Shown here one piece after another: positions 2,445-27,817 of a stretch of 32,583 nucleotides of DNA. The stretch's first letter is position 1, and each line of letters starts with the position of its first letter. The notes beneath the pieces are model-generated. The model did not search any database and was not told where the DNA came from. It saw nothing but the letters and a program-made list of their open reading frames with translations. Origin of the DNA: an uncultured Candidatus Peribacteria bacterium (GTDB lineage: Bacteria > Patescibacteriota > Gracilibacteria > Peribacterales > Peribacteraceae); the NCBI GenBank assembly GCA_964373225.1, contig CAYJTW010000001.1, forward strand, positions 1-32,583. Direction: 5' to 3'. A program made the position numbers and the translations under genes.

Positions 2445-4448
2445 ATGCATCCGGATAGAAAATCCATCATGAGATCCAACTCTCCATCTCCGGCACACGG
2501 ATCCGAGCATCTGCTCCGGCAGGCGGCATCGAATCTCACGCCGGACGCCGGCGCGCAAGCGCGCGTCAAGCGCATGATCCTCGCCCAACTCCGTGCTCCG
2601 CATCTGCTCAATCAGGTTCGCGAGGGACTGACGCCGTCGTCGGGACTCATCAAGGATCTATGGTCGCGCATTCTCTCGTCGATTGATCCGATCAGGCACC
2701 TCACGCTCTGGGAGCGTCTTCGCGAACATCTGAAGCCGGCTGCCGGAGCACGTGAACTTCTGTGGAGCAGATTCTCCGTCCGCCTCGAGCCGTCCTACGC
2801 GCGATATGCGGCGTCCGGTCCGGTCAAATGGGTCGCGGCATGCGCCATTGTTCTTGTTGCCGCCCGCGTGAGTCCGCTGCTCTTCCTCGCGCCCGCGTCC
2901 ATCGCGGAATCCCCGGTGACGCTCTTTGCGCGCGAAGGGCGGGTGGAAGTGCTTCTCGGATCGCTGTGGCAGCCGATCACCGGTGAAGTTTCCCTCAATT
3001 CCCCGACCCGCTTGCAAACCCAGAATGGCAAGGCGACGATCGTCACGCACGATGACGCGGTGTTCCGTTTTGCGCCCTACACGCGGGGCCAGCTGGTTGA
3101 TCTTTCCGACCGTCCGCAGTTCTCGGTGCAGGAGACGACGGTGGCGCTCGAAGAGGGAGAACTGTGGGTCCTCGGGCTTGTTCCCAAGCAGGTGCGCGCG
3201 ATCACGGTTCTCACCTCGCAGGGGCGCGTGTTCATCCACGAAGGCAGCGTTTCCATACAACAATCCCCCAGGAAAGTGGTGATTCGCGTGCTCGACCGCA
3301 GCGCCGTCGTGTCGCGTCACGGTCACCGGATATCGCTCGTCGCCGGAGAACAAACCGTGCTCAGCGGCGAGAATGAACCCGTTGCGACAAAAATGGATTC
3401 ATCGGTCTTCCAGGAGGCCTGGGTGGCCGGCAACCTCAGCCGCGACGCGGCCCACCAGCGCGAGATCGCACAGCTGCAGCAGGAGCGCCGCGCCGGAGCC
3501 GCCGGAATTTTGCCCGGTTCGCGCTTCTATCCTGTGAAGCGTCTGGCCGAAACGGTCGATGTGCTCTTCTCTCTCAGCGAAGAGGAACGCGCGCGTAAAC
3601 TCATCACGCAGGCCAACACGCGCCTCAACGAAGCCGCCGCGATGATTTCCAGTGGAGGGACGCAGGCCGCGGAGAATGCATTGCAAGAGTACAAGGATAC
3701 GCTCCTCCAGGTGGCCAGCGGCTCGGGAGGAAGTCCCGTTGTCCAATTACTGCTGCAGACGGAAGTCGTCGATGCCGGACCGGCCACGGTAGCCGCGGCG
3801 CTGCCGGGCGACCCGGGCTACGCACTCAAGCTGGCGGTCGATGACACCATCGCCGCACTGCCCGATACCGTCACGAAGCCCGATGTGGAAGGCGAGGCTC
3901 TCATTGACCAGTTGATCGTGGCCAAGCGCCAGGCGGAGCAGGGCGATACGCAGCTGGCGATGGAGACACTCTCCGGACTCCGCGATTCCATCGCGTCGCT
4001 GGACTCAACGGGCGCCCTCAATCTCGTGGCGGCCGATGTCCGGCATGAAGCCAAAGCAGTCGTGCAACAAGTGGCGGCTGCGGTCCAGGGTCCGGTGCTC
4101 GGCATCGGACTCGCGCTCGGCGTCCCCGAAAAAGATCTGGTGCTCCCGCAGCATCCCTCGCGCACGCTCCTCATCCGCCCGCTCACGCCCGAGCAGGTCA
4201 CCGCCAAGGCGCAGGAGATCCGTGGGCGCATCTTCGTCTACGGCACCAAGAAGGCCAGGTACGACGCTCTCGAAGACCGGATGCGGCTCCTGCTGAACCA
4301 TCCCGACCGCGGTCGCATTCTCCGCGAACTCGGCAAGTCTCTCCCGCGCGACGGGCTTGCGCAGCGCGTTACCCGCGAGATCCGGACGGTGACCGAGGAG
4401 GTGCGGCTGCAAGTCACAGCGAGCGGGGGAACGGCTGCAGCTCAATGA
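2445..4448 (+). CDS. Single-pass membrane protein, probable anti-sigma factor (FecR-like beta-rich domain plus long helical C-terminal domain)
   Basis: Immediately downstream of the ECF sigma gene. One TM segment (VKWVAACAIVLVAARVSPLLFLAPA). The extracytoplasmic beta-rich segment resembles FecR, and the helical part FYPVKRLAETVDVLFSLSEEERARKLI resembles DUF5667-type domains (recalled from memory). Confidence 0.6.
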   Translation: MHPDRKSIMRSNSPSPAHGSEHLLRQAASNLTPDAGAQARVKRMILAQLRAPHLLNQVREGLTPSSGLIKDLWSRILSSIDPIRHLTLWERLREHLKPAAGARELLWSRFSVRLEPSYARYAASGPVKWVAACAIVLVAARVSPLLFLAPASIAESPVTLFAREGRVEVLLGSLWQPITGEVSLNSPTRLQTQNGKATIVTHDDAVFRFAPYTRGQLVDLSDRPQFSVQETTVALEEGELWVLGLVPKQVRAITVLTSQGRVFIHEGSVSIQQSPRKVVIRVLDRSAVVSRHGHRISLVAGEQTVLSGENEPVATKMDSSVFQEAWVAGNLSRDAAHQREIAQLQQERRAGAAGILPGSRFYPVKRLAETVDVLFSLSEEERARKLITQANTRLNEAAAMISSGGTQAAENALQEYKDTLLQVASGSGGSPVVQLLLQTEVVDAGPATVAAALPGDPGYALKLAVDDTIAALPDTVTKPDVEGEALIDQLIVAKRQAEQGDTQLAMETLSGLRDSIASLDSTGALNLVAADVRHEAKAVVQQVAAAVQGPVLGIGLALGVPEKDLVLPQHPSRTLLIRPLTPEQVTAKAQEIRGRIFVYGTKKARYDALEDRMRLLLNHPDRGRILRELGKSLPRDGLAQRVTREIRTVTEEVRLQVTASGGTAAAQ

Positions 4449-5142: not shown

Positions 5143-5307
5143 GGGAATTTTGGCTGTAGGAAGGGCAAAGGGAGCGGGCCTTCGGCCCGCGTTCCACGGG
5201 GCCATGGAACTGAAATTATGTTTTCCTGAAGCCAAAAACTCCATTTTTCATTTTCAATCTTTTTTTCAGGGGCAGATTTCTCTTTGGGGAGGAAGCAGAG
5301 TGTAAAT

Positions 5308-5745
5308 ATGTTTCAGCGCCATCCCATTCAGAATGATGCCATTCTGTTTATCACAACGAATACCGCGAAGAGACGGAAGGTCTTCGGGGAATCTGTCAAT
5401 GCCAGAGAAGCCATAGAAACTCTTTACAGAGTTCAAGAGCTCCATCCATTTATTCTTTATGCATTTGTGATCATGCCGGATCATTGTCATTTACTCATGA
5501 GACCGATTCCTCCCATTCAAGTCTCTACCATCATGAGGGTATTCAAATCCGGTGTGAGTTTTAACTTGGGAATCGGTCCGATTTGGCAGACTCGCTTTCA
5601 TTTGAAGGAAGTTGAGAGTGTCACCAGAGTCATCCAATACATTCATAACAATCCTGTTCGGGCAGGCTTCGCTGAGAGTGCAGAGAAATATCCATGGTCA
5701 TCAGCAAGTGGGCGATGGGAAATCACTGAATGGGGATGCCTGTAG
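5308..5745 (+). CDS. REP-associated tyrosine transposase (RAYT; IS200/IS605-like Y1 HUH transposase)
   Basis: HUH motif in MPDHCHLLM; catalytic-Tyr motif IQYIHNNPVRAG..YPWSS; about 145 aa; flanked by REP hairpins. Confidence 0.85.
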   Translation: MFQRHPIQNDAILFITTNTAKRRKVFGESVNAREAIETLYRVQELHPFILYAFVIMPDHCHLLMRPIPPIQVSTIMRVFKSGVSFNLGIGPIWQTRFHLKEVESVTRVIQYIHNNPVRAGFAESAEKYPWSSASGRWEITEWGCL

Positions 5746-5760
5746 TGTTGCATTTCTTAC

Positions 5761-5827
5761 GCGGGCCGAAGGCCCGCTCCAATAAAAGGCCGAAGGCCCG
5801 CTCCCATGGAAAGCCGAAGGCCCGCTC
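5761..5827. repeat. Three tandem REP copies (core GGCCGAAGGCCCGCTC, 24-nt period); stems shorten from 7 to 4 to 3 bp
   Basis: Read directly: copies at 5761-5780, 5788-5804 and 5813-5827. They lie between the convergent RAYT and gatB genes. Confidence 0.9.
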
Positions 5828-5840
5828 TCTTGGAAGAATC

Positions 5841-7319
5841 TCAATTTTTCATCTTCTTCATCAATATCTCATTTACTTTTACAGGGTTTGCTTTCCCTTC
5901 CGATTTTTTCATGACCCAACCAACAATGGCACCCAAGGCAGACTTCTTACCGCTATTGAAATCTTCTACAGCTTTAGAATTTTCTGTAATTGCCTGATCG
6001 ACCCAGTATTCAATTTCGCTATCGTCAACTTTTCTTATGCCTTTTGTATCAATCAGATGATCAATCGTACCACCCTTTTGAACAATTGTATCCAAGAAAT
6101 CCTTGGCCTGATTTTTGTCGATAATTCCCTCATTCACTTTATCAATTATAGCGATAGTCTGCTCAAGCACTATTTTGAAATCCATTTCATCTGTGGGTCT
6201 GTTTTTCCTTTTTTCTTTATTTATGAAGCCTGCTATTTGCGTGAGAACCAAACTTCTTGTCCATTTTATGTCGTCGGTCTTGGCATGCACGGCATCAAAG
6301 AGCCCCCGCATCGCAGGCTGATCAATCAGCGTCGCTGCTTCGCTGTCATTCAATCCCATCGCGAGGTAGTGCTTCTTGCGCTCACGGGGCAGGACAACGG
6401 GTTCCGGTTGGATCTTTAACAGCATCTTCTCGTCGATCAACAGCGGAGGAATATCGGGCTCCGGGAAGTAGCGGTAGTCATCCGCGGTTTCCTTCTCGCG
6501 CAGGAGGCGCGTCTTCCCCTCGTCGTCCATCCATCCGACGGTGATGTCGCCTTTGAGCGGCCCTCCGGTCTCGTCCCATGACTTCCGTAGTCGCGCTTCT
6601 TCATACTGTAGCGCTCGTTCCAGTGCCTTGAAGGAGTTCAGATTCTTGATCTCGCTGCGGGGGTTCAGTTTTGCTGTTCCCTTCTCACGCAGGCTGATGC
6701 TCGCGTCGAAGCGCATCATCCCTTTGAACATGTCGGCCTCGGAGGCATTCACCGCGATCAGGATCCTCCGGAGCTCTTCGGCGAACGTGACGGCTTCATC
6801 GGCGGATCGCAAGTCCGGCTCCGTGACGATCTCCATCAGGGGGGTTCCCGCGCGGTTGTAGTCGCAGAGGGTCACCGATCCACGATGCGTCAGCTTTCCT
6901 GCGTCATTCTCCATGTGGAGGCGGGTGATGCGGCAGCGGCGAGAAGAAACCGAGGGAGCCGAAGAAACCGAGGAGTCCGAGGACCGGAGGTCAAACTCGA
7001 CTTCACCGTGTGAGGCCAATGGGAAGTCATACTGGGAGATTTGGAATCCCGACGGGAGGTCGGGGTAAAAGTAGTGCTTGCGGTCGAAATGACTATCCCT
7101 GTTGACCGTGCACTTGAGCGCCAGCGACATCTTCACCGCCTTGATGATCGCCTCGCGGTTCGGCACCGGTAGCGTCCCCGGATGGCCCATGCAGATCTCG
7201 CACACCGTCGTATTCGGTTCTTTGCCGAACGCGTCGTTGTCGCACCCGCAGAACATCTTTGTCTTCGTGTTCATCTGGGCGTGGACCTCCAGGCCAATGA
7301 TGGCTTCCAGTTGAGACAT
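5841..7319 (-). CDS. gatB: Asp-tRNA(Asn)/Glu-tRNA(Gln) amidotransferase subunit B
   Basis: IGLEVHAQMNTKTKMFCGC, GHPGTLPVPN, ITRLHMENDAGK, and a C-terminal GatB/YqeY-like domain. Confidence 0.95.
   Translation of the reverse strand: MSQLEAIIGLEVHAQMNTKTKMFCGCDNDAFGKEPNTTVCEICMGHPGTLPVPNREAIIKAVKMSLALKCTVNRDSHFDRKHYFYPDLPSGFQISQYDFPLASHGEVEFDLRSSDSSVSSAPSVSSRRCRITRLHMENDAGKLTHRGSVTLCDYNRAGTPLMEIVTEPDLRSADEAVTFAEELRRILIAVNASEADMFKGMMRFDASISLREKGTAKLNPRSEIKNLNSFKALERALQYEEARLRKSWDETGGPLKGDITVGWMDDEGKTRLLREKETADDYRYFPEPDIPPLLIDEKMLLKIQPEPVVLPRERKKHYLAMGLNDSEAATLIDQPAMRGLFDAVHAKTDDIKWTRSLVLTQIAGFINKEKRKNRPTDEMDFKIVLEQTIAIIDKVNEGIIDKNQAKDFLDTIVQKGGTIDHLIDTKGIRKVDDSEIEYWVDQAITENSKAVEDFNSGKKSALGAIVGWVMKKSEGKANPVKVNEILMKKMKN
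6943..6990. repeat. 18-nt tandem duplication (GAAGAAACCGAGGGAGCC / GAAGAAACCGAGGAGTCC, plus a partial unit), in-frame in gatB
   Basis: Read directly. Encodes the Ser-rich stretch SSDSSVSSAPSVSS just before the ITRLHMENDAGK motif. Confidence 0.85.
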
Positions 7320-10523: not shown

Positions 10524-11559
10524 ATGACGGTATTTCTGGCACTCTTCCTCGCCAGCCTCATCACGATCCTCCTCCCGTGCATTCTCCCGCTCATCCCGGT
10601 CGTCTTGGGCGTGAGCATCGCGGGGAAGAGCAAGCTCCGGCCACTCGTGATGATCGGGGGAATGGTGTTGTCGTTTGATCGTCGCCGTCCTCGGCGGCAA
10701 TCCGTTCCCTCTTCTATGACGCTCCCCACCCTCCCAAAAATTATGCGAGCTCCTGAATTCCGTGGCCTCGGCCCCTGGCATAACTCGCAGCCGTTCACGC
10801 TTGCCTCACTCAAGGGCAAAGTCGTGCTCGTGGATTTTTGGACGTACAGCTGCATCAATTGCATCCGGACGCTGCCATGCCGCCATCAAGCGCCACGGTC
10901 TCACGTACCCGACCGCGCAGGATAACGACTACGGGACGTGGAATGCGTTTGCCAATCGCTACTGGACTGCGAAGTACCTCATCGACGCGCAGGGCTACAT
11001 TCGCTACACGCACTTCGGGGAGGGGGGATACGAAGAAACGGATCTTGCCATTCAGAGCTTGTTGAATGAAATCGGGGCGACGGCGCAAGGGCCGATGATC
11101 GGTACGGATGCCACCGGCGGCAGCGGCCGCGGCCGCGAGACGTCGCCCGAGACGTACGTCGGCTCCCGCAACTGGCCCGCCTTCGCAAATGCTACGGCGG
11201 GCAAGCCGGACACCGCAGTCCATTCCTACGTGATGTCGGCGACTGTTCCCCTCAATCAATACGCTCTCTCCGGTGACTGGCAGCTGTCGGCTGATGAGGA
11301 GAGTCAGATACTGCGGAGCGCCGAAGGGGTAATCCGGTATCACGCGATGGGATCCGAAGTGAATCTGGTCCTGGGTCTCGCAGAAGAATCAACGCCCGTT
11401 TCCGCCGATATCTTCATCGATGGAAAGAAGACGAAGACGATCACGATCCAGGCGCATGATCTCTACAATCTCTTCACCGGTCCGTATGGCGAGCATGATG
11501 TCACGCTCAAGATTCATGGGAGGGGCGTGGAGGCGTATGCGTATACGTTTGGGTCCTAA
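10524..11559 (+). pseudogene. dipZ: Decayed DipZ-like gene (CcdA/DsbD membrane domain, thioredoxin-like domain, C-terminal DipZ domain), with frameshifts and internal deletions
   Basis: Frame 0 reads CcdA TM1 (LLPCILPLIPVV) and later the Trx motif VVLVDFWTYSCINCIRTLP, then stops at 10925. The continuation AIKRHGLTYPTAQDNDYGTWNAFANRYWTAKYLIDAQGYIRYTHFGEGGY lies in frame +1 (ORF 10762-11559). The TM domain is cut to about 50 aa, and a hydrophobic continuation (LIVAVLGGNPFPLL*) is visible in another frame near 10677. Confidence 0.75.
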
Positions 11560-13027: not shown

Positions 13028-14555
13028 AAACGTCGTAGTAGCGGAAGAATTCGGATGCGGTCGGACGTTTGGCTTCATCTGCCACGTCGCCGCGCTTCCA
13101 GGCGATGAAGTTCTCGAGGAACGCCTTGGAGAAGACGCCGCCCTTCAGCAGGAATTCGTGATCTTGTTCCAAAGAATCCAGCGCTTCACCGAGGGAAGAC
13201 GGCGCGTGCTTGATCTTGATCAGTTCCGCGGGAGCCATGTCGTAGAGGTTGCCGTCCGTGTGGTCGCCGGGCAGCAGCCCTCGCTCGATGCCGTCCATCC
13301 CCGCGAGGAGCAGCGCGGAGAAGGCGAGGTAGGGGTTGCAGGCGGGGTCGGGCATGCGGAACTCCACGCGCTTGGCCCTGGGATTGTTGCTGTACATCGG
13401 GATGCGGATCGCCGCACTGCGGTTGCGCGCCGAATAGATGAGGTTCACCGGTGCCTCAAAGCCCGGGACGAGACGCTTGTAGCTGTTGGTCGTCGGGTTA
13501 CAGATCGCACAGAGGGCTTTGGCGTGATGGAGGAGACCGGCGATGTAGTGGATGGCCATCTTGCTCAGCCCCGCGTATTCGTTCCCTGCGAAGAGCGGCT
13601 TGCCCTCCTTCCACAAACTCATGTGCACGTGCATGCCGCTGCCGTTATCGCCGAAGAGGGGCTTCGGCATAAACGTCGCGGTCTTGCCGTACCGGTACGC
13701 GACGTTGCGAACGATGTACTTGTAGCGCATGAGTTTATCGGCCATCGTCAGCAGCTCGTCGCGCTCCATGTCGATCTCGGCCTGGCCGGCCGTGGCGACT
13801 TCGTGGTGGAAGGTTTCGATCTTGATGCCCGCGCGCTCCATCTCGCGAACCATCGTCGAGCGCAGGTCCTGCTGGGTATCCATCGGGGAGACCGGGAAGT
13901 AGCCTTCCTTGTGGCGGATCTTGTACCCGAGGTTCCCCCCTTCGCCAAGGCTTCGGGGGGCAGGGCCCGAAAGCTCGTCACGGCCCGTATTCCAGATGCC
14001 TTCATTGGAGTCGACGTCGTACATCGCGCCATGTGCGCTCGTGTCGTACTTGACCGAATCGAAGATGAAGAACTCCGCTTCGGGGCCGAAGTAACCGCTG
14101 TCGGCCACGCTGCTGTTGCGCAAGTACTCCATCGCACGCATCGCCACCGTGCGGGGGCTGCTGTCATAGAACTCGCCCGTGATCGGATCTTTGACGTTGC
14201 AGAGGACCGACACCGTCTGCTCGGTCTTGAAGGCATCGAGGATCGCGGTCGCGGGGTCCGGAACGAGGAGCATGTCGGACTCCTGAATCTGGCGGAACCC
14301 GCGGATGGAACTCCCGTCGAAGCCCGCAGCGGTCTTCAGCACATCCTCAAGCTCGTGGATCGGCTTGCTCGTGTGCTGGAGCGTGCCGGGAACATCGACG
14401 AACGTCAGATCGAGCACGGTGCACTCATGCTTCCTGGCAAATGCCATCACATCTTCCGCGGTCTTCATCTTGGGCGTGAACGAGAGGTCTTCGCCCATGT
14501 GCGGGCGCGGGATTTTCAGTAATTCCTTTTCGAGGGTTCCGGCAGCGGGATTCAT
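13026..14555 (-). CDS. glnA: Glutamine synthetase, type I
   Basis: KPLFGDNGSGMHVHMSLW, SARNRSAAIRIP, RVEFRMPDPACNPYLA, NLYD. The start is uncertain: ATG at 14555, 14498 or 14468. Confidence 0.93.
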   Translation of the reverse strand: MNPAAGTLEKELLKIPRPHMGEDLSFTPKMKTAEDVMAFARKHECTVLDLTFVDVPGTLQHTSKPIHELEDVLKTAAGFDGSSIRGFRQIQESDMLLVPDPATAILDAFKTEQTVSVLCNVKDPITGEFYDSSPRTVAMRAMEYLRNSSVADSGYFGPEAEFFIFDSVKYDTSAHGAMYDVDSNEGIWNTGRDELSGPAPRSLGEGGNLGYKIRHKEGYFPVSPMDTQQDLRSTMVREMERAGIKIETFHHEVATAGQAEIDMERDELLTMADKLMRYKYIVRNVAYRYGKTATFMPKPLFGDNGSGMHVHMSLWKEGKPLFAGNEYAGLSKMAIHYIAGLLHHAKALCAICNPTTNSYKRLVPGFEAPVNLIYSARNRSAAIRIPMYSNNPRAKRVEFRMPDPACNPYLAFSALLLAGMDGIERGLLPGDHTDGNLYDMAPAELIKIKHAPSSLGEALDSLEQDHEFLLKGGVFSKAFLENFIAWKRGDVADEAKRPTASEFFRYYDV

Positions 14556-15531: not shown

Positions 15532-15589
15532 CCTTGTAATCCCGAGTAGCTCCGAAGGAGCGTATCGAGGGGTGAGATGGCTTGGCGGT
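15498..15589 (+). promoter_or_regulatory. 17-nt perfect direct repeat (TGAGATGGCTTGGCGGT, two copies) with a 10-bp hairpin on the first copy, plus a GCTCCGAAGGAGC mini-hairpin, upstream of thyA
   Basis: Repeat copies at 15498-15514 and 15573-15589. Hairpin ATGGCTTGGC (15502-15511) with GCCAAGCCAT (15520-15529) spans the regulator stop codon. GAA-loop hairpin at 15549-15561. Confidence 0.6.
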
Positions 15590-15625: not shown

Positions 15626-16453
15626 ATGCGCCAGTACATCGACCTCCTCCGTCATATTCTCGACCACGGCGTCAAAAAAGACGATCGGACGGGGGTCGGA
15701 ACTCTCAGTACGTTCGGCAACCAGATGCGGTTCAATCTGCAGGACGGCTTTCCGCTCCTCACGACCAAGAAGCTCCACACACGGTCGATCTTCCACGAAC
15801 TCCTGTGGTTCCTCAAAGGCGATACAAATATCAAGTATCTCCACGACAATCAGGTGACGATCTGGGACGAGTGGGCGGATAAAGACGGCAATCTTGGGCC
15901 GGTGTACGGAAAGCAATGGAGGAAATGGGAGGGGGCGGATGGGAAGGTCTACGATCAGATTGCGTGGGTGATCAACGAGATCAAGACGAATCCAAACTCC
16001 CGCCGCCTGATCGTCAACGCCTGGAACGTCGCGGATGTATCCAAAATGGCACTGCCGCCGTGTCATGTATTGTTTCAATTCTATGTTTCACCACCTGACG
16101 CGGGCAGAATGCCCGCTTCCTCATCCGGGAAATTGAGTTGCATGTTGTACCAGCGCAGCTGCGATGTCTTCCTCGGCGTTCCCTTCAATATCGCCTCGTA
16201 CGCGCTCCTCACGCATATGATCGCGCAGGTCTGCGATCTTCAAGTCGGCGAGTTTGTCCACACGCTCGGCGACACGCACCTGTACCTCAATCATTTGGAT
16301 CAGGCGAAGGAGCAGCTGAGCCGCGAACCGCGCTCACTTCCTCAGTTGAAACTCAATCCGACGGTCAAAAACATCGATGACTTCAAATTCGAGGATATTG
16401 AAATTGTCGGCTATGACCCCCATCCTGCGATTAAAGCTCCGATAGCGGTGTAA
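15626..16453 (+). CDS. thyA: Thymidylate synthase (ThyA type)
   Basis: [65 protein letters not shown]. Start taken at the ATG at 15626. Confidence 0.95.
16100..16116. repeat. REP hairpin GCGGGCA-GAA-TGCCCGC, in-frame inside thyA
   Basis: 15 of 17 positions match the RAYT-flanking REP GCGGGCC-GAA-GGCCCGC. The two differences are a compensatory C:G to A:T change in the stem. Confidence 0.8.
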
Positions 16454-16456
16454 CAT

Positions 16457-16678
16457 ATGTTTATGAATGAGAGTAGAGCTAAATCACTAGCGATCTCGAT
16501 CTTGCGAGGTTTGGATCAAATGGAAGACGAGTCGCTCTATTCTTGTACCTTGCCTTTATACATGCGTGATGAAGGAGTGCGACAGACGATTGAGCGATAT
16601 CGCAAATCGGAGTTTCGCATTCTGACCCATGGGGGAGCTCTGCATGTTTTGGCTCCACTTTCTCTTCCATTTGAATGA
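16457..16678 (+). CDS. Small hypothetical protein (73 aa) between thyA and folA
   Basis: ATG lies 3 nt after the thyA stop. AT-richer than its neighbours; no recognisable motif. Confidence 0.4.
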   Translation: MFMNESRAKSLAISILRGLDQMEDESLYSCTLPLYMRDEGVRQTIERYRKSEFRILTHGGALHVLAPLSLPFE

Positions 16679-16705
16679 TCATTTCGATCATCGCCGCCGC
16701 ATCCG

Positions 16706-16728
16706 CCCTTCGACAAGCTCAGGGTGAC
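16706..16728. repeat. Copy 2 of the dispersed element CCCTTCGACAAGCTCAGGGTGAC (intergenic, upstream of folA)
   Basis: Matches 1416-1438. This is the sequence class that reads PFDKLR / SPELVEG / LSLSKG in spurious ORFs (the antisense ORF here reads HPELVEGR). Confidence 0.8.
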
Positions 16729-16751
16729 ACGGCAGTGCTTCCTTCTCTCTT

Positions 16752-18664: not shown

Positions 18665-19258
18665 TTAGAGACGAACGATCAGTTTGTTCGCCTTTTGATC
18701 GAGCGTTTTGTCCAATAATTCTTTCCAGGTCTTCCCGATGACCGGATGGATACCGGTCGGATCAAGGAGTTCGATCAGTGGTTCCAGGACGAACCGGCGT
18801 TCATGCATGCGCGGATGCGGGACAACGAGTGGGTAGTGAGTAGTGGGTAGTGAGTAGCCACCAACGGAGTCTCCATAGAGCAAGAGGTCCAAATCGATCG
18901 TCCGCGGGCCGAAGCGGAACGGAGGATTCTTCTTCAAATGCCGTTCAATGTGGGTCAAAAATTCATAGATCTCATCGGGAGTCAGATCGGCATCGAGCCT
19001 GGCGACGGCATTGAGGAAGTCATCCTGTTCCTCGTGATGGAGCGGCGCGCTGCGGTAGACGGAGGAGAAGCGGATGGCAGGGTGGCGCTTGCGGAGCATC
19101 GTCGCAGCGGCCTTCAGATTATCCTCCGGGTCGATGTTACTGCCGAGGGCGATGAAAATTAAGGGCACAAAGGAGGCAAAAGAGACAAAAGAGGCAAAGG
19201 GGATGTCATTGTGATCGCCTGACGGTGAGTGCGACGCAGCCGGATTCCGGAATCGCAT
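18665..19258 (-). CDS. folK: 2-amino-4-hydroxy-6-hydroxymethyldihydropteridine pyrophosphokinase (HPPK)
   Basis: [39 protein letters not shown]. The ATG at 19258 overlaps folB by 53 nt. An alternative GTG at 19168 sits immediately before the conserved IALGSN. Confidence 0.85.
18827..18857. repeat. Heptamer tandem array (GAGT GGGTAGT GAGTAGT GGGTAGT GAGTAG), in-frame inside folK
   Basis: Read directly. Encodes [10 protein letters not shown] just before the conserved VPHPRM motif. Confidence 0.85.
19164..19205. repeat. Roughly 9-nt tandem array (GGCACAAAGGA GGCAAAAGA GACAAAAGA GGCAAAGGGGA) at the folB/folK junction
   Basis: Read directly. Lies between the folB stop (19206) and the alternative folK GTG (19168). 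It translates as [11 protein letters not shown] if the long folK start is used. Confidence 0.8.
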
Positions 19259-22721: not shown

Positions 22722-23705
22722 TCACCTCACAGTCAACCGCGTCCCCGCTCTGAGCATTTGCTTCTGCAGATCAATTCTCTGAAGGACGCAGCCCTCGTCA
22801 ATCACGCAGTCTCTGAGAGTGCAGTCGCGGATCGTCACATTGTCGAAGATCATGCAGTCGGTCAGTGCACTTCCTTCAATCACGCAATTGCGCCCGACCG
22901 TGACGCTCCCGCTGAGTTCCGTTCCTTCCACCGTCGCTGTGGGATCAATCAACGCCTTTTCTCCAATGAGTTCCTTGTGCGCATGCAGGTAACTCCCGAA
23001 TGAGCCGATGTCCATCCACGGCCCGGTGAAGGTGAAGCAGTCGACGGGGATCTCCCTCCGCAGCAATTCTTCAAAAATGCCGCCGAGGTTGTCAGGTTTC
23101 ACCGCGGCGAATTCAACGAGGATGGAGAGAGTGGACTTGGGAAGGATGACGCAACCAGTGCTGACGAGCGTGGAGTTTGGGGATTTCGGCTTCTCTTCAA
23201 ATCTTTTCACCCGTGTTCCTTCTACTATAACGACGCCAAATGCCTTCGCCCTCTCCAGATCCCCCACGTCATGTGCAGCCAGCAGGGGATTGCCTGTCCG
23301 AACGGCTCGGCCGGGCGGGCCGTTGAAGGCCGTCAGAAATTTCTCCAGGGAAAATCCCAGAAAGTTGTCCCCCGTCAAAATCAACAGATCATCATCAACT
23401 CTCTCCGCCTTCACCCACTCAGCAATCGAACCGAGCGCACCGAGTTTGTGATCATCGCGTTGCGTTCCTTCAACAACCAATTCCATGCCGGGTCGTTCCA
23501 TTTCATCCATCCATCTCTTGAATCCATCGGCGAACGCTGCGTTCGTGCTCACCGTCACCGGCATCCCCGCGGGAATCTTCTCCACGAGATGCGTGATGAT
23601 CGGTTTGCCGATGAGCGGGAGCAGGGGTTTGGCCCGCTTTTCGGTGAGAGGCCAGAGTCTTGTGGCGAAGCCACCGGCGAGGATGAAGGCTTTCATTTGT
23701 CCCAT
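22722..23705 (-). CDS. Sugar-phosphate nucleotidyltransferase (NDP-sugar pyrophosphorylase) with C-terminal left-handed beta-helix
   Basis: MKAFILAGGFATRLWPLTEKRAKPLLPL signature, plus hexapeptide-repeat-like C-terminal third. Confidence 0.85.
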   Translation of the reverse strand: MGQMKAFILAGGFATRLWPLTEKRAKPLLPLIGKPIITHLVEKIPAGMPVTVSTNAAFADGFKRWMDEMERPGMELVVEGTQRDDHKLGALGSIAEWVKAERVDDDLLILTGDNFLGFSLEKFLTAFNGPPGRAVRTGNPLLAAHDVGDLERAKAFGVVIVEGTRVKRFEEKPKSPNSTLVSTGCVILPKSTLSILVEFAAVKPDNLGGIFEELLRREIPVDCFTFTGPWMDIGSFGSYLHAHKELIGEKALIDPTATVEGTELSGSVTVGRNCVIEGSALTDCMIFDNVTIRDCTLRDCVIDEGCVLQRIDLQKQMLRAGTRLTVR

Positions 23706-25394: not shown

Positions 25395-26381
25395 CTATTT
25401 CACCTCAGCAACCTTCATCCCGCCTTCCCAGACAAAAGATAACTTCGTCGCGTCCCACGCAATTTTCCCATCCCAGGAATTGCCTTCGGCGACACTGCTC
25501 TTCTTCGGCATGTACGTCTCCAGCCACTGGAGCTTCTTGGCGAGAACCGGATTGCTCGCGGCTCGCAGGCGGAAGGACTGCTCCTGGGTAACAAAATAGG
25601 TGACGCTCTCGGCGAGGTCTTCGAAGTTGTCGCTCTCGTACGCGTAGCCCGTGACGAACTGTCGTCTTGCCGCTGTCGGTTTCCTCTTCTTTTCGCTCTC
25701 CCACGAAATGCGGTAGAACTCCACGCTCGGATCGTCGTTGTAAAGAAGATCGTCGCCATCACGGAAGGCGCTCACGCCGCTCTTCTCGTCACCCGTCAGG
25801 CAGGTGATGTCGCGGAAGTGGCCGAGACCTTCGTGCATCAGGAGTCCGATGAACTCCTGGTCGGGGACGGTGCCGGAAACGAGGATCACGCCACGGCCGG
25901 CGAGGCCGCGGTGTTTGGGGTTGTCGTAGAGGACGGAAAAGGTCTGCAGTTTTTCGAGACACGCAGGATCCAGCAGACTCAGGACCGCCTCGGCGAGCGG
26001 GCGCTGCGCTGCGCGGGCTCCGGACTCATCCAGCAGCGTCTGCAGACGCGATTTCGGTGTGGGTACATCAAGTAGGGGTTGTTCGCGAACAACCCCTACG
26101 TCGGCTGCGGGGGTCGTCACCGTCTCCGTGACGGGACGCTGACGAACCTGATGGCGGCGCGGGCCGTAGATGACGCGGGCGGAAACGATTTTTTCGGATG
26201 TGGTCTGCGGCGCAGTCTGCTGCGCCCTTGCGGCAGCGCGCAGTTGTGCTACACTGGGATAGAGATACAGTGCGACAGAGAAGATCATCACGATCAGGAG
26301 CAGAGCCAATGGCTGGAGAGCGTTCTTCTGCACGTGTTTCCCGAAGTGGTACTTTATATCATATTTATCGTTAGATGTCAA
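25395..26381 (-). CDS. Membrane-anchored putative zinc metallopeptidase (HExxH)
   Basis: N-terminal TM LQPLALLLIVMIFSVALYLY, HExxH in GLLMHEGLGHF, and a downstream acidic NFEDLAES. The start is uncertain: TTG at 26381 overlaps divergent rlmD by 7 nt, and there is an alternative GTG at 26333. Confidence 0.6.
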   Translation of the reverse strand: MTSNDKYDIKYHFGKHVQKNALQPLALLLIVMIFSVALYLYPSVAQLRAAARAQQTAPQTTSEKIVSARVIYGPRRHQVRQRPVTETVTTPAADVGVVREQPLLDVPTPKSRLQTLLDESGARAAQRPLAEAVLSLLDPACLEKLQTFSVLYDNPKHRGLAGRGVILVSGTVPDQEFIGLLMHEGLGHFRDITCLTGDEKSGVSAFRDGDDLLYNDDPSVEFYRISWESEKKRKPTAARRQFVTGYAYESDNFEDLAESVTYFVTQEQSFRLRAASNPVLAKKLQWLETYMPKKSSVAEGNSWDGKIAWDATKLSFVWEGGMKVAEVK

Positions 26382-27817
26382 TACCCGTCACTATAGAGAA
26401 ACTCACCTTCGGAGGTGCAGGTTTGACCCATGTCGACGGTTTGACGGTGTTCGTCCCGGACACGATTCCGGGCCAGCAGGTCGAGATCGAAATCACCAAA
26501 AAGAAGGATACGTTTGCGGAGGCGAAGGTCGTCAAAGTCCTGCGCCGCGCCAAGGACGAAATCCCCGCGCGCTGCACACACTTCCACGACTGCGGCGGGT
26601 GCATCTGGCAGAACCTCCCGTACGACAAGCAGATCTCGTACAAGGAAGACATCGTCCGCGAGACGCTCAGTCACCTGACACCCGCGGACGAGAACGTCCG
26701 CTCCCATCTTGCAGGGCGGGTGCTCAACATCATCCCGAGCCCGCAGATCTACCACTACCGCAACAAACTCGAGTTCAGCTTCGGTTTCCAATCCATGCGG
26801 ACCGAGGAGAAAGCCGGTCGCCGCCTCTACTTCGACGAAGGGCCCAGCATCGGATTCCACCAGCCCGGCCAGTGGTCCACGATCCTTCCCATCACCGAGT
26901 GTCACCTCTACGACGAGCAGGTCGGCGTGCTCCTCGCGGATGTGAAACGCTTCATGGAACAGACGAAGTTGCCGGTGTTCAATCCCAAGACGAATCGCGG
27001 CATGCTCCGTAACCTCTTGCTCCGCAGAGGCGTCCACACGGGCGAGCAGATGATCTGCTTTTTGCTCCACGCGCGGAAAAAAGAACTCGAGCCGCTCTTC
27101 CAGCAATTCCTCCGCGCGTTCGGCGGCCGCCCGCATTTGGCGTCACTCCTCATCGTCGAGCATATGGGTGTGCACGAAAAGCCCGAGTTCCCCAGGGTCC
27201 ACACGCTCATCGGCAAGCCGACGATCACCGAGCGTCTCTTTGATCTCAGTTTCGAAATTTCGCCATTCTCGTTCTTCCAGACGAACACTTTGGCGGCCGA
27301 GAAGCTCTACCAGGCGATCGCGCAGGCCGCGCAGCTGACAAGCCGCGACACCGTACTCGACGCCTACTGCGGCATGGGCACGATCGGTCAGTACCTTGCA
27401 CGATACTGCCAGCGCGTCGTCGGCGTCGAGAGCCATCCCTCCGCCGTCGATGACGCGCTCAAGAGCGCGGGCCGCAACCGCATCGGCAACATCAGCTTCT
27501 ATAAAGGACGCGCCGAGCAGGTGCTCCTCGATCAACTCAAACCCCCGAAGGGGGGCCCTTCGGGCCCCGGCGGCAAATACAAGTTTGACGTCGTCATTCT
27601 TGATCCCCCCCGCGCGGGGCTCCATCCCAAAGCGCGCGATGCCGTTCTCGCGCATGCACCCGAGAAGATCGTCTATGTCTCGTGCAACACCGCGACGTTC
27701 GCCCGCGACCTCGGGGAGTTCTTGAAAGGGGGGTACGACCTCAGAACGGTTCAGCCCGTCGATCTCTTCCCGCATACGGCGCATATTGAGACGGTGGCGC
27801 TGCTGCAAAAGAAGTAG
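26375..27817 (+). CDS. rlmD: 23S rRNA (uracil-5-)-methyltransferase, RlmD/RumA (TrmA) family
   Basis: N-terminal TRAM-like domain, Fe-S cysteines C..HF.DCGGCIWQ, SAM motif LDAYCGMGTIG, DPPRAGL, VYVSCN. Confidence 0.88.
   Translation: MSIPVTIEKLTFGGAGLTHVDGLTVFVPDTIPGQQVEIEITKKKDTFAEAKVVKVLRRAKDEIPARCTHFHDCGGCIWQNLPYDKQISYKEDIVRETLSHLTPADENVRSHLAGRVLNIIPSPQIYHYRNKLEFSFGFQSMRTEEKAGRRLYFDEGPSIGFHQPGQWSTILPITECHLYDEQVGVLLADVKRFMEQTKLPVFNPKTNRGMLRNLLLRRGVHTGEQMICFLLHARKKELEPLFQQFLRAFGGRPHLASLLIVEHMGVHEKPEFPRVHTLIGKPTITERLFDLSFEISPFSFFQTNTLAAEKLYQAIAQAAQLTSRDTVLDAYCGMGTIGQYLARYCQRVVGVESHPSAVDDALKSAGRNRIGNISFYKGRAEQVLLDQLKPPKGGPSGPGGKYKFDVVILDPPRAGLHPKARDAVLAHAPEKIVYVSCNTATFARDLGEFLKGGYDLRTVQPVDLFPHTAHIETVALLQKK
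27542..27568. repeat. Two abutting REP-like triloop hairpins, CCCCC-GAA-GGGGG and GGGGCCC-TTC-GGGCCCC, in-frame in rlmD
   Basis: Read directly. Encodes PPKGGPSGPGG just upstream of the conserved FDVVILDPPRAG. Confidence 0.75.

Follow-up and report, generated by a model that had tools for sequence, protein, structure and literature searches.

How does a hairpin of the kind that flanks a gene for a REP-associated tyrosine transposase (RAYT) come to lie in frame inside thyA, and why has it stayed there? The question is raised by a stretch of 32,583 nt from an uncultured Candidatus Peribacteria bacterium (GCA_964373225.1, contig CAYJTW010000001.1, forward strand, positions 1–32,583), which we analysed as a whole and refer to as the window. 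For comparison, we used DNA of relatives on syntenic contigs with the order glnA-trmB-thyA-folA...folE-folK-folB-secDF; labels such as L166–L171, L081–L084 and L001 denote the loci or contigs of the relatives compared with the window.

A hairpin in the reading frame of thyA

The features of the thyA locus are the following:
15626–16453, forward strand: thyA, thymidylate synthase (TS), 275 aa, an intact ORF, identified by PF00303 and by end-to-end alignment to E. coli TS
16091–16123, forward strand: in-frame insert of 33 nt (11 codons) relative to the canonical 4-residue turn, recognised as the only gap to E. coli TS
16098–16120, forward strand: REP unit AC-GCGGGCA-GAA-TGCCCGC-TTCC in thyA, recognised by its likeness to the RAYT-flanking REPs and to a copy in L082
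16752–17234, forward strand: folA (DHFR), the operon partner of thyA (PF00186, E = 5e-64; order kept in relatives)

In a profile search, ThyA matches PF00303 over positions 1–266 of 266 (E = 7e-129), and the stretches DRTG, HELLWF, WDEW, SRR, PCH, YQRS, DVFLG, PFN and GDTHLY are unchanged in the alignment with E. coli TS; we take these conserved stretches to have catalytic roles, with the catalytic Cys in PCH and an Arg in YQRS among them. The sole gap against the E. coli TS chains is one of 11 residues, FQFYVs[[11 protein letters not shown]]sGKLSC as compared with FQFYVA-DGKLSC. A preliminary description of this DNA had claimed an 11-aa (33-nt) in-frame insertion centred on a hairpin, and this is what the alignment returns, with the hairpin at the centre of 16091–16123. 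The hairpin proper, GCGGGCAGAATGCCCGC (16100–16116, forward strand), is preceded by GAC and followed by TTCC, and consists of a perfect 7-bp stem and a 3-nt loop, GCGGGCA-GAA-TGCCCGC, exactly as that description had placed it. Its codons, which encode AGRMPA, are embedded in the context TTC TAT GTT TCA CCA CCT GAC (hairpin codons) TCC TCA TCC GGG AAA TTG AGT TGC.

Folded as single-stranded DNA, the hairpin reaches -9.3 kcal/mol (z = -4.5); for the insert as a whole, the MFE falls within the lowest 4% of the coding background. The palindrome is GC-rich and, on direct reading, contains no stop codon in any frame. It is thus a short GC-rich palindrome with a stable stem-loop, as expected of a REP of 20–40 nt, but REPs are by definition extragenic and the copy at 16100–16116 lies inside the thyA ORF, an exception of a documented kind. 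Furthermore, the REP unit of ~23 nt accounts for only part of the 33-nt insert, which counts against reading the insert as a REP copy.

The thyA sequence is 100% identical to the window in two independent public assemblies (runs ERR3478686 and ERR4904391), over 2.7–4.3 kb, which makes a chimeric assembly very unlikely; the preliminary description had named chimerism as grounds for withdrawing its claim, and no sign of it was found. We therefore assign a negligible probability to an assembly chimera or sequencing artefact that put REP sequence into thyA: the window does derive from a metagenome, with no supporting sign of an artefact, but the assemblies from different runs agree, the thyA reading frame is unbroken, and orthologues from many samples have inserts at the same site.

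The spacers on both sides of thyA have features of their own. The thyA-folA spacer (16454–16751) is 298 nt long in the window, compared with 0–81 nt in most relatives, and contains a 73-aa ORF (16457–16678) with no family match; in one relative, a RelB-like gene lies between thyA and folA. The trmB-thyA spacers of the window (15549–15561) and L082 (8057–8073) contain homologous hairpins that share the flanks CGAGTA...GTATCGAG and a GAA loop and differ in their stems, GCTCC/GGAGC being that of the window and GTCCGCC/GGCGGAC that of L082.

The RAYT gene and its hairpin family

The RAYT gene and the hairpins around it occupy these positions:
5284–5745, forward strand: RAYT gene, with the likely start at the ATG at 5308
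5174–5190, reverse strand: REP copy upstream of the RAYT gene, GCGGGCCTTCGGCCCGC, inverted, with a TTC loop on the forward strand
5761–5777, forward strand: REP copy downstream of the RAYT gene, GCGGGCCGAAGGCCCGC followed by TCC, with a GAA loop
5788–5825, forward strand: two 5'-truncated REP copies, GGCCGAAGGCCCGCTCC and GCCGAAGGCCCGCTCT, with a 24-nt period

The product of the ORF at 5284–5745 scores 98.7 bits against the NCBIfam equivalog NF047646 (cutoff 80) and matches Pfam Y1_Tnp with E = 5e-11, and its translation shows the H-x-H motif (DHCHLL) as well as YIHNNPVRAG, so that both the curated threshold and the H-x-H and catalytic Tyr motifs identify it as a RAYT. Homologues with 50–66% identity are widespread in Peregrinibacteria/Peribacteria and are named RayT or transposase in Peregrinibacteria. 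On the syntenic contigs L168 and L083, there is no RAYT gene between efp and gatB, which abut each other, and hence the RAYT gene and its hairpins are an insertion specific to the lineage of the window. Another Peribacteria genome, L171, encodes a RAYT with 64% identity in a different context, between dinB and valS, where it is flanked, in inverted orientation, by GGA-GCGGGCGTTCGGCCCGC and GCGGGCCGAACGCCCGC-TCC, members of the same hairpin family. The arrangement of inverted REPs around a RAYT gene is thus found both in the window (5174, reverse; 5761, forward) and in L171. The L171 contig also contains two intergenic copies of another hairpin family, GGGGTGGTCCGCC-NNN-GGCGGACCGGGGAG, at 3176–3194 and 13772–13790.

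The thyA hairpin is identical to the RAYT-flanking REPs at 15 of 17 positions, and the only differences, C7>A and G11>T, turn the innermost C:G pair into A:T. Comparison with the copy at 5761–5777 bears out the preliminary description on this point, namely, that there are just two differences and that the 7-bp stem is kept. The REP pattern with at most two mismatches occurs three times in the window against 0.03 expected, a count reached in 0 of 100 shuffles. Altogether, the 32.6-kb window contains three full and two truncated copies, of which the one in thyA is the sole copy away from the RAYT gene, and the status of the hairpin as repetitive therefore rests on the relatives, in which there are one to three additional copies per 15–20 kb.

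Two of these relatives are particularly informative. In the amt-glnA intergenic region of L082, the family forms a doublet, GGA-GCGGGCATTCTGCCCAC-GTGAC-GCAGGCAAGAATGCCTGC-TCC, which folds into a REPIN-like long hairpin (-17.8 kcal/mol, z = -5.1); one half of it (5499) is identical to the thyA hairpin of the window at 16 of 17 positions, and also has the AC...TCC flanks. At L171 4579, an intergenic copy reads GCGGGCA-CAGA-TGCCCGC-TCC, with the stem of the thyA variant. Judging from these copies, the A:T hairpin is an ordinary variant circulating in the REP family, and since it is found between genes in L082 and L171, the compensatory change need not have arisen within thyA. Of the "compensatory stem change" described earlier, the compensated pair itself stands, whereas its origin inside thyA does not follow. 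The more general claim, that a member of the RAYT-flanking REP family lies in frame in thyA, is supported by the NF047646 match, the L171 RAYT and the L082 and L171 copies.

The site in orthologous genes

Close ThyA relatives (75–88% identity) are 264–284 aa long, and all of the length variation falls in the turn that contains the insert. Several of them have hairpins there:
window: GCG GGC AGA ATG CCC GCT, AGRMPA
L166: GCG GGC ATA CAG CCC GCT, AGIQPA
L169 and L001: GCG GCC AGA AAG GCC GC-, AARKAA
L170: GAC GGC AGA AAG CCG TCG, DGRKPS
L083: GCT GGC CGG AGG CCG GCG, AGRRPA
L081: GCA GGT CTT CGA CCC GCG, AGLRPA
L082: GCGGGTC-(18 nt)-GACCCGC

The hairpins of the orthologues share one codon register at the same beta-turn; the peptides differ and the stem persists. 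In alignment A2, 92.9% of the stem cells are paired and 5 of the 7 pairs are changed on both sides, as compared with 23–46% pairing in slid controls; none of 500 shuffles reaches the observed value on four of the five measures, and one of 500 does so for pairs changed on both sides. The hairpin segments entering this count were picked by hand, which makes the figures lean towards structure, whereas the register was set by orthologous codons. The closest genome, L081 (GlnA 91% and SecDF 90% identical), has a thyA hairpin with the loop reversed, which matches the minus-strand REP at 14 of 17 positions.

Other occupants are found at the same site as well. In place of the REP hairpin, L167 holds CGTCCTTCGACGAGCTCAGGACGACACGCG, from a second repeat family, and L084 has a long palindrome of 21 aa, whereas L168 and several other orthologues have the canonical 4-residue turn (for example, SRGR or SNGK). 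The insert-less orthologues retain the canonical x-G-K/R turn, and in a weakly resolved NJ tree of ThyA they are interleaved with the insert-bearing ones. A single private insertion in thyA is at odds with the hairpins of the orthologues, which share both its site and its codon register. The alignment of ThyA orthologues that had been suggested as a check thus gave a mixed outcome, with hairpins of differing stems in some lineages, other repeats in L167 and L084, and the canonical turn in L168.

The hairpins are conserved to a degree that the surrounding gene is not. Third codon positions of thyA are only 47–57% identical among the lineages, but the hairpins are identical at 12–17 of 17 positions in several pairs: at all 17 between L001 and L169, and at 14, including every one of the six third positions, in the comparison of the window with L166. 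Such conservation is not what one would expect of a decaying neutral relic. Hairpins that stay alike where synonymous divergence is saturated might also be under selection for a function.

Match to the repeats of each genome

In two relatives, the thyA hairpin has a counterpart elsewhere in the same genome. In L170, a second copy of the genome's own thyA hairpin lies 16 nt past the folA stop, with 20 nt exact (GACGGCAGAAAGCCGTCGCT) and ~36 nt similar. The thyA stem variant of L082, GCGGGTC, recurs at L082 2807, in the variable linker of a DsbD-like gene. Given these two cases, the thyA copies look like members of the repeat population of each genome, a match that may stem from recurrent insertion at a hotspot, from gene conversion or from a self-correction of the palindrome that uses one arm as template for the other. 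The post-folA hairpin of L170 (3226–3270) is followed by TATGTTTTCTCTTC and a T-rich tail and looks like an operon terminator, or a REP serving as one.

Consequences for the protein

In the AF2 model of ThyA (mean pLDDT 85.6; TM 0.89–0.93 to E. coli TS), the insert forms a loop between strands 147–155 and 169–180, with pLDDT < 50 at residues 160–165. Structure modelling, which had been proposed as a way of finding out whether the insert is a surface loop, thus places it in a low-confidence loop at the tip of a beta-hairpin. Among TS chains in the PDB, 2aaz and 1ci7, which are presumably fungal enzymes, have extra residues at exactly the same beta-turn after the FQFYV strand (9 and 5 residues, respectively; 2aaz reads FFVSLPPADSPGSKPKLSC), which shows that crystallised TS can accommodate an insert at this position; their inserts are unrelated to REP DNA. 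We also considered PDB 7ta9, a longer ThyA, which has no insert at this turn. Among 160 sampled ThyA genes from many phyla, 139 have the 4-residue turn and 21 have an insert there. ThyA most likely works normally, and the model suggests that the 11 extra residues form a disordered surface loop at the beta-hairpin tip; an active enzyme with a tolerated loop is suggested by the unchanged active-site stretches, the presence of folA next in the operon, the AF2 model and the inserts in other TS.

Other repeats and inserts in the window

A second short repeat family, CCCTTCGACAAGCTCAGGG, is represented in the thyA-folA spacer of the window (16704–16733) and in frame in guaA (1416–1434; HPSTGSGQVP). 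This repeat fills the thyA insert of L167 and is nested in the loop of the thyA hairpin of L082; a copy is also present in a Nitrosomonadales contig (L052). Depending on the frame, it reads PFDKLR or PSTSSG, and on the reverse strand PELVEG. A literature search on the CCTTCGACAAGCTCAGG repeat (PELVEG / FDKLR / PSTSSG) found no paper. When GuaA was aligned to PDB chains, the ambiguity was too great for the guaA repeat to be classed as an insertion.

Besides thyA, the window has four lineage-specific in-frame inserts with a hairpin fold; for three of these, the MFE is among the lowest 4% of the coding background. The TRAM/U5-methyltransferase gene (26375–27817) has an 8-aa in-frame insert, PPKGGPSG (27545–27568), that has no counterpart in the orthologue of L083. 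The insert is made up of overlapping GC-rich hairpins, one of which, GGGGCCC-TTC-GGGCCCC, is two compensated pairs away from the REP, and its MFE is in the lowest 0.8%. The other three, which are specific to the window in comparison with 2–4 relatives, lie in glnA (13941–13976), an NTP-transferase gene (23292–23330) and a hypothetical gene (26070–26135), add 8, 9 and 18 aa, and have MFE percentiles of 15%, 3.6% and 0.6%, respectively. The 18-aa insert, in the hypothetical gene at 25395–26381, contains a perfect 12-bp palindrome, AGGGGTTGTTCG/CGAACAACCCCT. A REP-like hairpin in the TRAM methyltransferase gene (26684–26701, GCGGACG-AGAA-CGTCCGC-TCCCAT) was rejected as an insertion, the orthologue having no indel there, and a permissive scan for family-like hairpins (one arm mismatch, one unpaired position) yielded mostly noise, too much for counting genic against intergenic copies.

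Window-specific in-frame inserts in folK (18824–18874) and gatB (6936–6974) consist of short direct repeats (CTACTCACTACCCA... and TCGGTTTCTTC..., respectively) and are not palindromic. The DsbD-TM/thioredoxin gene is a single ORF of 621 aa in L082; in the window (10524–11559), it is represented by two overlapping ORFs (133 and 265 aa) without most of the membrane domain, and is either a pseudogene or the result of an assembly frameshift.

Origin and maintenance of the hairpin

We consider it likely that the thyA hairpin is a copy from the REP family of the lineage's RAYT, lying in frame at the tip of a beta-hairpin as a tolerated passenger that tracks the REPs of its genome, although the family does not have the GTAG tag of classical RAYT-associated REPs. 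It presumably arrived as single-stranded hairpin DNA, whether the RAYT put it there or another copy was the source in template switching or gene conversion. It could survive in thyA because it adds a whole number of codons, the palindrome is stop-free in every frame and the turn tolerates additional residues. The turn appears to have been occupied for long, or repeatedly, in Peribacteria, and as the resident remains a hairpin and resembles the repeat variant of its own genome, concerted evolution with the REP population of the genome (by re-seeding, conversion or palindrome self-correction) is favoured over a function specific to thyA. The hairpin is, then, most likely a tolerated selfish passenger.

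Could selection instead be keeping a structured element, whether a hairpin in mRNA or DNA or a peptide loop, at this point of thyA? Possible roles include translational pausing, autoregulation of TS through its own mRNA and a protein-binding DNA site, and the covariation of the stem across orthologues, with 5 of 7 pairs compensated, the nucleotide conservation in the face of 47–57% third-position identity, and the fact that the two stem pairs departing from Watson-Crick pairing are both G-T when read on the sense strand are all consistent with it. We nevertheless regard such a function as quite improbable, given that close orthologues have no insert and keep the canonical turn, unrelated repeats occupy the site in L167 and L084, the sequence and orientation of the loop vary, and the same hairpins are found between genes and beside the RAYT gene; there is no Rfam match to the hairpin either, an Rfam scan of the window having returned one tRNA and nothing else. 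The hairpin might also have been produced locally, by snap-back or microhomology-driven template switching without a transposase, for instance from a nearby terminator-like hairpin, in which case the likeness to REPs would reflect shared stable GAA-loop hairpins. L170, where a donor-like copy directly follows folA, only ~850 bp away, and where GACGGCA, the left arm, is similar to canonical Asp-Gly-Lys codons, fits this scenario, as does L084, where the 21-aa thyA insert (3360–3395) starts with an inverted copy of the upstream codons, the native 5' flank being repeated as a perfect 10-bp inverted copy, GGGTTTCACC-GAA-GGTGAAACCC; the L084 sequence suggests snap-back template switching at the same turn. 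For the window, local template switching is unlikely, because neither arm is native to thyA and both match the RAYT-flanking family, flanks included, no similar hairpin follows folA, and the hairpin family is associated with a RAYT in two genomes.

Ordinary lineage-specific expansion of the loop, with the palindrome and the REP likeness arising by coincidence from GC-rich Ala/Gly/Arg/Pro codons, draws on the turn being a general indel hotspot of ThyA in many phyla, on perfect 7-bp hairpins not being rare (~10 distinct ones in this window of 57% GC) and on the insert's MFE being only within the lowest 4% noted above. It is already strongly disfavoured, and we give it very little credence, in view of the 15/17 identity with shared flanks against 0.03 matches expected, the 16/17 identity to the intergenic copy of a relative (L082), the 20-nt exact duplicate in L170 and the stem covariation. 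The reading of the hairpin as a REP-family passenger can be extended further: tentatively, the ThyA beta-turn of Peribacteria might be a fixed docking site for palindromic repeats, at which the resident copy is repeatedly replaced or converted and thereby follows the repeat population of its genome, or else the hairpin itself might be selected. The occupants of such a conjectural docking site would be the REP family, the CCTTCGACAAGCTCAGG family and a longer palindrome.

Significance

These observations extend RAYT/REP systems and intragenic REPs to a CPR lineage and to an essential, well-studied enzyme, although they reveal no new kind of element or mechanism. What is new is the CPR lineage, the host gene thyA and the evidence for a codon-exact site at which family hairpins, tracking the variant of their own genome, are found across deeply diverged orthologues. 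With its states of no insert, varied hairpins and other repeats, the thyA locus is a natural experiment on how palindromes get into coding DNA, stay there and become homogenised, and it also informs on how much loop insertion TS tolerates. If either the docking-site reading or that of a selected hairpin holds, the turnover of REPs, the flipping of their loops and the self-correction of palindromes could be measured over deep time at one codon-exact locus shared by orthologues, and palindromic repeats would be a regular source of in-frame loop variation in small CPR genomes.

Comparison with known systems

Among known in-frame palindromes, the Rickettsia palindromic elements (RPEs) come to mind. 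RPE-1 is ~100–150 nt long and adds tens of residues, and we know of no transposase assigned to it. The Peribacteria element, with an insert of 33 nt and a REP unit of ~23 nt as against 100–150 nt, does not have the size of an RPE and belongs to a RAYT-flanking family. The likeness lies in an in-frame palindromic repeat within a gene that is probably still functional, as the genes containing RPEs are described to be in secondary accounts (Ogata et al. 2000, via PMC3733652 and PMC3184786). Repeats fused into coding sequences have been reviewed by Delihas 2011.

The REP/REPIN-RAYT systems of Pseudomonas and Enterobacteria (Nunvar 2010, PMC2817692; Bertels and Rainey 2011, PMC3116915) resemble the Peribacteria system in the inverted REPs around the RAYT gene, in the folding of an inverted doublet (here, that of L082) into a long hairpin and in REPs that look genome-specific. 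Classical REPs and REPINs lie almost entirely outside genes and reach hundreds of copies per genome, whereas the copy number looks low in the DNA analysed here, and the thyA copy is an intragenic singlet. A look for REPs in a Peribacteria genome paper found nothing.

The closest parallel is with intragenic REPs. The preliminary description knew of no account of RAYT-type REPs within genes; however, a catalogue by Di Nocera, De Gregorio and Rocco 2013 (PMC3733652) lists REPs located wholly within known ORFs, both from the RAYT-associated GTAG super-family and from the CGTC super-family. Many of these encode short peptide inserts, which were argued to be neutral, and different REPs are found at about the same recB site in two Xanthomonas species (PMC3733652). 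The thyA hairpin is like them in being a short GC-rich stem-loop inside an ORF that adds a few residues, probably as a neutral decoration. Membership in the named super-families was considered and rejected. The 5' flanks of the Peribacteria copies are TTAC, GAAC, TGAC and TCAC, with GTAG at neither end. CGTC REPs have a terminal CGTC, an 8–9 bp stem with A/T in the first two pairs, a 4–5 nt loop and a CCA tail (PMC3733652), whereas the thyA hairpin has a 7-bp stem starting with G-C and C-G, without A/T pairs at the first two positions, a 3-nt loop and a TCC/GGA tail. The minus strand of the thyA copy does contain ...GCGTC, and the RAYT-flanking copies read CGTA and CGTT. On its sequence features, the hairpin family is outside the GTAG and CGTC super-families, yet behaves like them. 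The Peribacteria family thus differs from the catalogued REPs in having neither a GTAG nor a CGTC tag, with AC and TCC flanks instead, in its CPR host and in the gene concerned, thyA, and in a codon-exact site that is occupied, with stem covariation, across many diverged orthologues.
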